Below the pieces are notes generated by a model that did no database searches, was not told the origin of the DNA, and saw only the letters and a list, made by a program, of their open reading frames with translations. A stretch of DNA of 54,367 nucleotides from a virus (lineage: Duplodnaviria; Heunggongvirae; Uroviricota; Caudoviricetes), in the IMG/VR virus record IMGVR_UViG_2531839448_000005, positions 1 through 54,367 of that record. One strand, written 5' to 3'. The position numbers and the translations under genes were made by a program. How positions within the stretch are numbered: position 1 is the stretch's first letter; each line of letters starts with the position of its first letter. Of the stretch, positions 1,392-4,300 are shown piece by piece.

Positions 1392-4300
1392 TCAGCTAAT
1401 CGTGATACCTGCTGTGGATTTCTTCATCACCACAACCAGCAAATCGCTGATGCTTGCTGTGGGATACCAGTTATTTACCAGCCATGCTGACACCGAAAAC
1501 TCCAGTATCATGTGACCGTGACCGGCAGGCATATCAATAACACCACTGTAAATCAGCGTATTATCCAGCGCGGTACGGTTATAAATTTCAGCACCGTTTT
1601 TCCGCACTATCAGACGGCATGAGGAGTAAATATCAGTATGCTCTCTCTCATGCTTAGCGCCACTGAATGCCACCGCGGGAATAACAATCTGCCGGTCAAA
1701 CGGCTGATCGTCATAAACCCTGACGGTAATGGTCCCTGATGGCCACCGCTCCGGTGCACGGGAGTCCCGGGGGAAAGCTTTGCCCACTGTTTTAACGAGA
1801 TCGCCTTCAATCTGGTTCGCGGACAGTTTTCCCAGAACCCGACAGTTCTCGTTAATCGTGACATTGTTGAGCGTCCCTGAATTTGCATTCACATTACCGC
1901 TGATATCCGCATTTTTAGCGGTCAGCTTTCCGTCTGGTGTCAGGGAAAATGCCGGCGGATTTCCACCGCTGGTAATGGTGGGAGCCGTCAGGCGTTTCAG
2001 GAACACGTCGTTCATGAATATCTGGTTGCCCTGCGCCACAAACATCGGCGTTTCATTCCCGTTTGCCGGGTCAATAAACGCGATACGGTTAGCGGCAACC
2101 AGAAACTGGCTCAGTTTGCCTTCCTCTGTGTCCTCCATGCTGAGGCCAATACCCGCGACATAATGTTTGCCGTCTTTGGTCTGCTCAATTTTGACGCCCC
2201 ACATGGCATTCCACTTATCACTGGCGTCCTTCCACTCTTTCGAAAACTCCTCCAGTTTGCTGGCGTTATCCTCCGTCAGCTCGACTTTTTCCAGCAGCTC
2301 CTTGCCGAGATGGGATTCGGTTATCTGGCCTTTGAAAAAATCCAGGTAACCTTCCGCATCATCGCTCGCCCGACCAACAGCCTCCACGAATGCCGATTTG
2401 CCGACGGTGTTCACACTGCGGATATAAAAGTAATAATCACGACCCGGTTTGATATTGATACTGGCGGCTATCCAGTACAGCCCCGTGCCAAGATAGCGGG
2501 CTGTGGTTTCAACCTGCCTGATATCGGTAATCCGCTTTTCCGAGAACCAGAACTCAAACTGTACCGTCGGATCATAAACCGCAAGATGCGGCGTTGCGGT
2601 TATCTGAAAATAGCCCGGCGTCAGCTCAATCCGCGACGGTGCTGCCGGTGCGGCGATCCGGAACGATACCGACGCCGGATCGCCCTGCTGTCCCCACGCA
2701 TTTACCGCCCGGACCGTCAGCCTGTAGTTCCCCAGCGCCAGTTGCGTGAAGCGGTATGTGGTTTCCGTCGTCCTGGCCGTGCTGACCAGCCGCTCACTGC
2801 CGTCATCCGCTGCCACGGTCAGGCGAAGCATAAAGCTCACGCCCTTCACCACCTTCGGCGTGTCCCATCGCGCCAGCACCTGATATTCCCCGCTGTCTGC
2901 GGTGACTTCGGCGGTCAGATGCTGCACTGCTGGCGGCGTGACACCATTCACCGTGCCGCTCTGGTCACCGTCAAAGTGCGCCCCGTTATCCACGATGGCT
3001 TCTTTCTCCGGTACATGCTGCACGGCAGTGATGGCATACGTGCCGTCGTCGTTCTCACGGATACTCACACAGCGGAACAGGCGCTGGCGCAGCGTCGGCA
3101 GCTTCAGCCCCCACACGCTGTATCCGGCAACGCCGTCAGGAACCCGGCTCACTTTCACCTTCACGCCGTCGGTGACGGACTGGACCTCCACGCTGACCGG
3201 ATTGCCACTTCCGTCAACCAGGCTTATCAGCGTGGTGCCGGAGGATGGCAGCGTGATTTCACGGTCGAGCGTCAGCGTCCGGGTCTGGCTGTTCACCGCC
3301 AGCACACGCCCGCCGATGCTGATCCCCGCATAGTCATCATCACAGATTTCAATGACATCGCCCGGTACATGGCGAAGCCCTTCGGCACCCACGCTGAAAT
3401 CCACGGTCTGCGTCTCCAGCAGCTCCGTTTTAATCAGCCACAGCCCGGCGCGGTGTGCCTGGCCCGCCGGGTGGTACAGCCAAAGGCATCCATCTTCGTG
3501 ACGTTACGACCGTAACGGGCAATGGCCTGCGTATCCTCCACAAGCTCTGTCGCCGTCTCCCAGCCGTTATCCGGGTCAATCCAGTTCACCTCAACGGCAT
3601 TATGGCGGCCCTTCAGGGCGCTGAAGCTGTAGCGGAACGGCGCGCCATCATCCGGCATCACCACATTACTGCGGTTATAGGTCCACACCTTATCCGACGG
3701 TCGGTCCTGCACGAACGTCAGCGTCTGCCCGTTCCATACCGGCATACAGCGCATCGCCGAGCAGAAATCGCTGAGAACATCCCACGCCTTACGCTGTGTG
3801 GTCAGCCAGGCATTACAGGTGATGCGCGGCTCCGTGCCGCCAAAACCATTCGGTACCAACTGGTCGCAGTACTGGCCGATAACGTACAGCGCCCATTTGT
3901 CCACATCTGCCGCACCAAGACGTTTCCCCATGCCGTAGCGTGGATGGGTCAGCATATCCCACAGACACCAGGCCATGTTGTTGCTGTATGCTGGCTTAAA
4001 CGTTCCGTCCCAGATACCGCTGTATTGCCGCGTCTGCGGGTTATAGTTCGACGGCACCTGCAGAATACGCCCGCGCAGATGATAATTACGGCTCACCTGC
4101 TGGCTGCCGAACTGCTCCGAATCCACCTGCACGCCGACCAGTGCCGTATTCGGGTAGCACTGTTTCACATCGATGATTTCGGTGTATGACGACCAGAGCG
4201 TTTTGTTCTGCAGCTGGTCTGTGGTGCTGTCCGGCGTCATCCTGCGCATCCGGATATTAAACGGGCGCGGCGGCAGGTTATCCACCACCACCGAGGCCAG

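Follow-up and report, generated by a model that had tools for sequence, protein, structure and literature searches.

A split J gene in a lambdoid prophage of the Escherichia coli TX1999 draft genome: probable consensus error in a tail tip gene

The tip attachment gene J of a lambdoid prophage in the draft genome of Escherichia coli TX1999 is divided between two reading frames. Comparison with related sequences suggests that this split is probably a consensus or base-calling error in the draft and not a property of the strain, with a probability of about 0.6. The window, which is the whole stretch of 54,367 nucleotides analyzed here, is a TX1999 prophage on contig AFEB01000037.1 of a 2011 draft assembly (GCA_000225245.2). 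It begins 2 nt from the contig end, and a window coordinate equals the contig coordinate minus 2. An error is favored because the lesion is unique, clusters with other private changes and lies on a run of five Gs, and because the assembly has an excess of indels, the site is close to a contig end in a repeated gene, and J is without secondary decay. On this reading, the strain would encode an intact 1131-aa gpJ-type tip attachment protein.

The whole J gene, which encodes the tip attachment (central tail fiber) protein, occupies positions 1392..4789 of the minus strand and measures 3398 nt in the window against 3396 nt in intact relatives. Its N-terminal ORF (3434..4789, minus strand; EGX23285.1) starts at ATG 4789, encodes 451 aa of which the last 11 are out of frame, and ends at TGA 3436-3434. 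The C-terminal reading frame (1392..3503, minus strand) is preceded by a stop at 3506-3504, is open from 3503 and ends at a final stop at 1394-1392; the corresponding database ORF, EGX23284.1, begins at GTG 3404 and has 670 aa. Relative to the N-terminal frame, the C-terminal one is offset by −1, and the two overlap by 70 nt (3503-3434). This layout agrees with the initial annotation, which had described a −1 offset with an N-terminal stop at 3434 and a C-terminal frame already open upstream. The single uninterrupted ORF of a functional J is absent from the deposited record, where the gene is split at 3434-3503.

Lambda gpJ nucleates assembly of the tail tip, and its C-terminus binds the receptor. 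When the two extra bases described below are deleted from the window, one J ORF of 1131 codons results; judged by this repaired ORF, the split is not chance ORF noise. The repaired product aligns with lambda J (NP_040600.1) at 89.7% identity by BLASTP (residues 1-1130 against 1-1131), collinear over the full length, in line with the identity that the initial annotation had assigned and had proposed to check by alignment to lambda J. The N-terminal piece carries the Pfam domains FNIII-A_GpJ (86-207) and Phage-tail_3 (330-442), and those of the C-terminal piece are Ig_J, Ig_J_second, Phage_Tail_Tip and the receptor-binding domain Ig_GpJ_C; counting both fragments, all six lie above the Pfam gathering cut-offs. 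The match of the N-terminal piece to Phage-tail_3 (PF13550) runs from profile position 1 to 109 out of 164, which places the break within a domain. The same piece matches residues 1-447 of lambda gpJ in PDB entries 8iyk and 9e7m (8iyk_J, E 2e-302). Around J, the genes called on the source contig, like those that RefSeq annotates in near-identical relatives, stand in the order tape measure, M, L, K, I, J, lom, stf. Alike to lambda gpJ in full-length identity, Pfam series and gene order, the two pieces together are, on these three grounds, the orthologue of lambda J.

Two features set the gene apart from that of lambda. The lambda ORF is uninterrupted, whereas the window ORF is broken at codon 440-443, and the extreme C-terminal receptor-binding region differs, that of the window matching WP_000515626.1 of porcine ETEC prophages. 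The latter protein is encoded by intact 3396-nt ORFs in the prophages of ETEC1747, ETEC4085 and CV839-06, against which the window has 2 nt more and private residues G394 and T440. These are the 2 of 1131 residues at which repaired J differs from WP_000515626.1, T440S within the lesion and G394D at a substitution at position 3609. D394 and S440 are found in all other database J sequences examined.

The lesion spans positions 3462..3471 of the minus strand. On the plus strand it consists of an extra G at 3462, another at 3466, and a G in place of C at 3471; on the coding strand, this amounts to two separate C insertions and a G-to-C change within 10 nt. Where the window has ACCACCCGGCGGGCCAGG, all relatives have ACCAGCCGGGGGCAGG; lambda, phage 21 and E. 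coli CV839-06 read GGCTGTACCAGCCGGGGGCAGGCACACC against GGCTGTACCACCCGGCGGGCCAGGCACACC in the window. The minus-strand codons ACC-AGC-CGG-GGG-CAG of the relatives become ACCACCCGGCGGGCCAG. At the core of the lesion, every relative has CC-GGGGG-C, that is, a G5 run (CCGGGGGC) with CC before it and C after it, and this run is interrupted in the TX1999 draft, which has CCC-GG-C-GGG-CC. Aligned base by base with lambda, phage 21 and three E. coli prophages nearly identical to it, the window shows a net change of +2 nt, which places the downstream J frame at −1. The lesion is missing from ETEC1747, ETEC4085, CV839-06, GPT24-02, lambda and phage 21.

These details refine what had been proposed for the site. 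The initial annotation had located the frame switch in a GC-rich stretch, and CCCGGCGGGCC at 3471..3461 on the minus strand is such a stretch. It had also stated that the switch is not at a long homopolymer, which is true of the window sequence but not of the site, since every relative has there the G5 run that the lesion interrupts. Likewise, the frame offset is indeed −1, but the underlying event is a complex change of net +2 nt and not a one-base slip.

A further private difference lies 138 nt from the lesion, at position 3609 (minus strand), where codon 394 reads GGC (Gly) against GAC (Asp) in all relatives, a non-synonymous substitution. J, otherwise nearly identical to its relatives, carries four private changes within 150 nt. 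Two of the three changes in the lesion create CCCGGCG, a 7-nt sequence complementary to CGCCGGG 14 nt downstream, while the third, the extra C before AGG, lacks a template in the downstream arm. Single-stranded DNA folding of both alleles gives −12.7 and −14.1 kcal/mol (z −0.43 and −1.53 against shuffles), so that both alleles fold no better than shuffled sequence. Outside the lesion the 3.4-kb ORF is perfect, and secondary decay is absent from both halves of J.

The lesion is confined to this one assembly. A search of complete E. coli genomes gave 13,851 J-like places in 4,448 genomes, none with the lesion; the best match per record to the 81-nt lesion segment has at most about 95% identity, and among the matches listed every full-length one has 79 nt where the window has 81, and likewise 299 where it has 301. 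The exact 451-aa product is found on one contig only, AFEB01000037.1, in an index of 153 billion genes. A 27-mer across the lesion had no match in species-representative genomes, metagenomes or the viral collection, while the intact 25-mer, used as a positive control, is present in at least 120 IMG/VR viral contigs. The private variant at 3609, searched as a lineage marker, was not found in the metagenome, viral and genome collections. A natural allele with ACC-CGG or an inserted C was considered and set aside, as the 47 exact IMG/VR matches to such sub-patterns all proved to be chance matches outside J. A recurrent frameshift hot spot at the G5 run was also rejected: the database J fragments of 444-494 aa (P0004, P0009, P0011 and P0013) pass the site in frame and are partial at contig ends.

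The rest of the window provides a measure of how reliable the assembly is. The prophage was compared with the independent complete genomes ETEC1747, ETEC4085, CV839-06 and 14EC029, and a 15-kb insert within it, discussed below, with GPT24-02, OkiPb01701 and EC416; a difference is called private when the window disagrees with every relative covering the site. ETEC1747, ETEC4085 and CV839-06 are 99.4-99.9% identical to the window over the flanking 12-17 kb, and the relatives used in the comparison of about 39 kb are 99.4-99.96% identical to it. In the window, eight A/T runs fall exactly one base short of their length in every one of the 2-5 comparators, and none is longer. These private contractions lie at 17776-17780, 17962-17966, 31340-31345, 31587-31593, 36807-36812, 37127-37133, 40384-40388 and 52969-52974, and a ninth, at 17658, is seen against GPT24-02. 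The share of runs affected rises with run length, from roughly 3 of about 80 true 6-runs to 3 of about 27 7-runs and 2 of 5 8-runs. One-directional, length-dependent miscounting of runs is the classic signature of consensus errors from the pyrosequencing era. The TX1999 data are probably 454-like, to judge from this error pattern and from the sequencing center's 2011 projects; neither technology nor coverage for TX1999 was found in the literature, where the strain came up only in an incidental BLAST-table mention. Homopolymer under-calling probably explains the frameshifts that had been noted at A-tracts elsewhere in the window.

Three of the contractions break two integrase genes, although all comparators stay in frame through those runs. 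In the prophage integrase (52310..53331, plus strand), the contraction at 52969-52974 turns A7 into A6, while four independent assemblies have A7 and remain in frame across it. In the integrase of the 15-kb insert (31265..32483, minus strand), two contractions 247 nt apart, T8 to T7 at 31587-31593 and T7 to T6 at 31340-31345, spread the gene over three successive frames; it is intact, with 407 aa, in GPT24-02, OkiPb01701 and EC416. The 5' part of the side tail fiber gene stf (1..659, minus strand), which runs off the contig end, lacks one nucleotide between 628 and 629, a private deletion by which the frame is shifted at codon 11, so that the relatives' MAVKISGVLKDGAGKPVQ... becomes MAVKISGVLKAVQVNRY... 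and then a stop in the window. This deletion (CACCG-CTTT in the window against CACCGTCTTT) falls outside homopolymers, 0.6 kb from the end of the contig. As a separate observation, the prophage integrase adjoins tRNA-Ser/mtfA, and RefSeq calls it frameshifted in all four relatives, though it is open there for about 343 codons; the flag seems, from the annotated coordinates, to concern the 3' end.

Over about 39 kb compared, the window has at least 11 private indels and only 3 private substitutions (3471, 3609 and 40979), a ratio of about 4:1. In bacterial divergence, substitutions outnumber indels about tenfold, as E. coli mutation-accumulation studies indicate. The excess seen here is the reverse of this usual pattern and so counts toward assembly error. 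Besides the J lesion, four genes of the 54-kb window carry between them at least five more indels that disrupt the frame; these are seen in this assembly alone, and several independent genomes contradict them. The substitution at 40979, where the window has G and all four relatives have A, is the sole private one outside the J region over the prophage sequence that could be compared, about 39 kb. Two adjacent-base "swaps", at 33604/5 and 9121/2, belong to ETEC1747 alone and are not differences private to the window.

The J lesion itself is 3.4 kb from the contig end. Five of the six private differences outside homopolymers (628, 3462, 3466, 3471 and 3609) lie less than 3.6 kb from that end, all of them in the multi-copy tail genes J and stf, sequence that E. 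coli genomes carry in a median of 2 and up to 13 copies. Next to a contig end and in repeated sequence of this kind, thin coverage and a mixture of reads from paralogues can corrupt a consensus. In the mechanism that we propose, reads discordant in the number of Cs and Gs per run would have been mis-aligned near the contig end, possibly together with reads that came from the J paralogues of further prophages in this genome. The consensus would thereby have gained two spurious C columns and a miscall. Some observations run contrary to this reading. Single-base A/T contractions are the errors that recur in the assembly, and the lesion, with two insertions and one substitution in G/C sequence, is of another type, so that it is attributed to artifact by association. 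The complementarity of CCCGGCG and CGCCGGG, moreover, is a pattern that a real template switch can leave. The comparison with drafts of the pyrosequencing era is divided in the same manner: the window shares with them the length-dependent, one-directional (−1) A/T miscounts that break conserved genes, but the J lesion, though on a G5 run, is a complex +2 change and not a simple miscount of run length.

The state of the prophage also bears on the J split. A cf-PICI-like satellite of about 15 kb (17610..32661, minus strand) is inserted in the prophage large terminase gene, terL, at a TTGGTAA core; the uninterrupted site reads CATGTGTTTGGTAAAAAAATTCACCC. By sequence comparison this insertion is certainly real, because the same junctions split terL in 32 complete E. 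coli genomes, among them GPT24-02, where they occur in a different lambdoid prophage at a different chromosomal site. With terL interrupted, the prophage cannot package and is not autonomous as it stands. The initial annotation had concluded that the J split leaves the prophage tail-defective, which is incomplete, since the prophage is non-autonomous whatever the state of J. Because the insertion is real, the prophage is under relaxed selection, and genuine decay of its tail genes is plausible.

The gene content of the element, taken from RefSeq annotation of 97.8-99.8% identical elements in GPT24-02, OkiPb01701 and EC416, comprises integrase, HTH regulators, a DUF927 primase-like gene, ssb, ProQ/FinO, capsid, protease, portal, connector, HNH, TerS and TerL, and in the annotation of these relatives it is without tail, lysis or holin genes. 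cf-PICIs as a class depend on a helper phage for their induction, and their own small capsids are joined to the tails of that helper. Published cf-PICIs are 10-15 kb long, have an integrase, regulators and a replication gene but no tail or lysis genes, and carry a capsid and packaging module of capsid, protease, portal, connector, HNH, TerS and TerL (bioRxiv 10.1101/2022.09.08.507074, PMC10085698). The element agrees with this description in size and gene content, which it appears to fit, and by analogy with cf-PICIs would need the tails of a helper (bioRxiv 10.1101/2022.09.08.507074). Fewer than 8% of cfPICIs have neighboring prophage genes (PMC10085698), and an attachment site inside the terL of a helper-type prophage seems worth attention in its own right. 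The ssb gene of the element, at about 25240-25670, appears truncated in the window (98-aa ORF at 25369-25665); it is annotated as frameshifted in GPT24-02 and intact in OkiPb01701 and EC416. This frameshift may be shared and real in a TX1999/GPT24-02 sub-lineage.

The main alternative is that the J split is a genuine, recent and strain-private complex mutation, two 1-nt insertions and a transversion, that inactivates the gene, which we regard as quite possible though short of probable. The deposited record does show the split, its type is unlike the homopolymer contractions of the assembly, and the prophage was already non-autonomous with its terL split by the 15-kb element. In GPT24-02, the tape-measure gene has an internal stop, so decay of tail genes does occur in such a setting. 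Against it, the lesion is unique among more than 13,000 copies of J and belongs to a group of four private changes within 150 nt of an otherwise near-identical gene, and both halves of J are free of secondary decay. The same logic would also admit the five other private frameshifts in four genes as real, beside only three substitutions. The initial annotation had reasoned that a frame change outside an A-tract is more likely a genuine mutation; the ancestral G5 run, the clustered private changes, the single 2011 draft, the excess of indels and the nearness to a contig end in a multi-copy gene speak against that argument.

Such a mutation could perhaps have arisen in one event of template switching or error-prone repair at a GC-rich quasi-palindrome, as the window allele has acquired a 7-bp GC stem formed with the downstream arm. 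Templating accounts for two of the changes, however, and not for the extra C before AGG, and the folding of both alleles is no better than that of shuffles. That the lesion is genuine, arose in one step by a template switch at the quasi-palindrome and forms part of a real decay of a satellite-occupied lambdoid prophage is an unlikely combination; if it were true, the satellite would have lost its resident tail donor, and the status of J would decide its spread from TX1999. Far more improbable still is a functional split, whether by programmed −1 ribosomal frameshifting or as a two-piece J, in favor of which there is only the formal geometry of a −1 offset with a 70-nt frame overlap. A codon-by-codon reading of the zero frame across the overlap (3503-3434) finds no X XXY YYZ slippery heptamer, and the runs of three present there (TTT, CCC and GGG twice) are in the wrong register or have no YYZ after them. 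Every relative has a single in-frame ORF, none of the 4,448 complete genomes shares the shift, the break lies within PF13550 at profile position 109 of 164, and other database J fragments of similar size, about 450 aa, are partial at contig ends and in frame across the site. A programmed frameshift or split gene was rejected on the lack of a slippery site, the lack of conservation of the shift and the position of the break inside a domain.

Frameshifts in tail genes of cryptic lambdoid prophages offer a further comparison. Laboratory lambda PaPa carries a frameshift in stf, and the window resembles this case in having a single tail fiber frameshift in an otherwise well-preserved genome. Lesions of the PaPa type, however, are verified and common to all descendants, whereas the J lesion comes from a single unverified draft.

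Some other features of the window are recorded here as observations in their own right. The tail assembly chaperone pair G/T lies at about 10410-11200, upstream of the tape-measure gene, and relatives annotate G as "incomplete" with a separate T, the usual arrangement of the lambda-type programmed −1 frameshift. The A-run at 10418, just upstream of the tape-measure start, is A7, A8 or A9 among relatives. Near-identical relatives are annotated with a cluster of four tRNA genes (Ile, Lys, Thr and Gly) between Q and the lysis genes; its equivalent in the window, by homology to L007 4768-5077, is at about 37400-37750.

The J split is ordinary under either reading, and nothing in it is novel. If it is real, the strain would make a 451-residue J fragment that has lost two thirds of the protein and is without the Ig-like, tail-tip and receptor-binding domains; no tail tip would be initiated and no tails formed, for the prophage or for any satellite that relies on its tails. 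The satellite-like element would then be the only party affected, as the prophage would be non-propagating anyway through its interrupted terL, and the lesion would be routine prophage decay of little biological weight. If the split is instead the consensus error that we consider probable, calls of pseudogenes and of a "defective prophage" drawn from the 2011 TX1999 draft would be unreliable.
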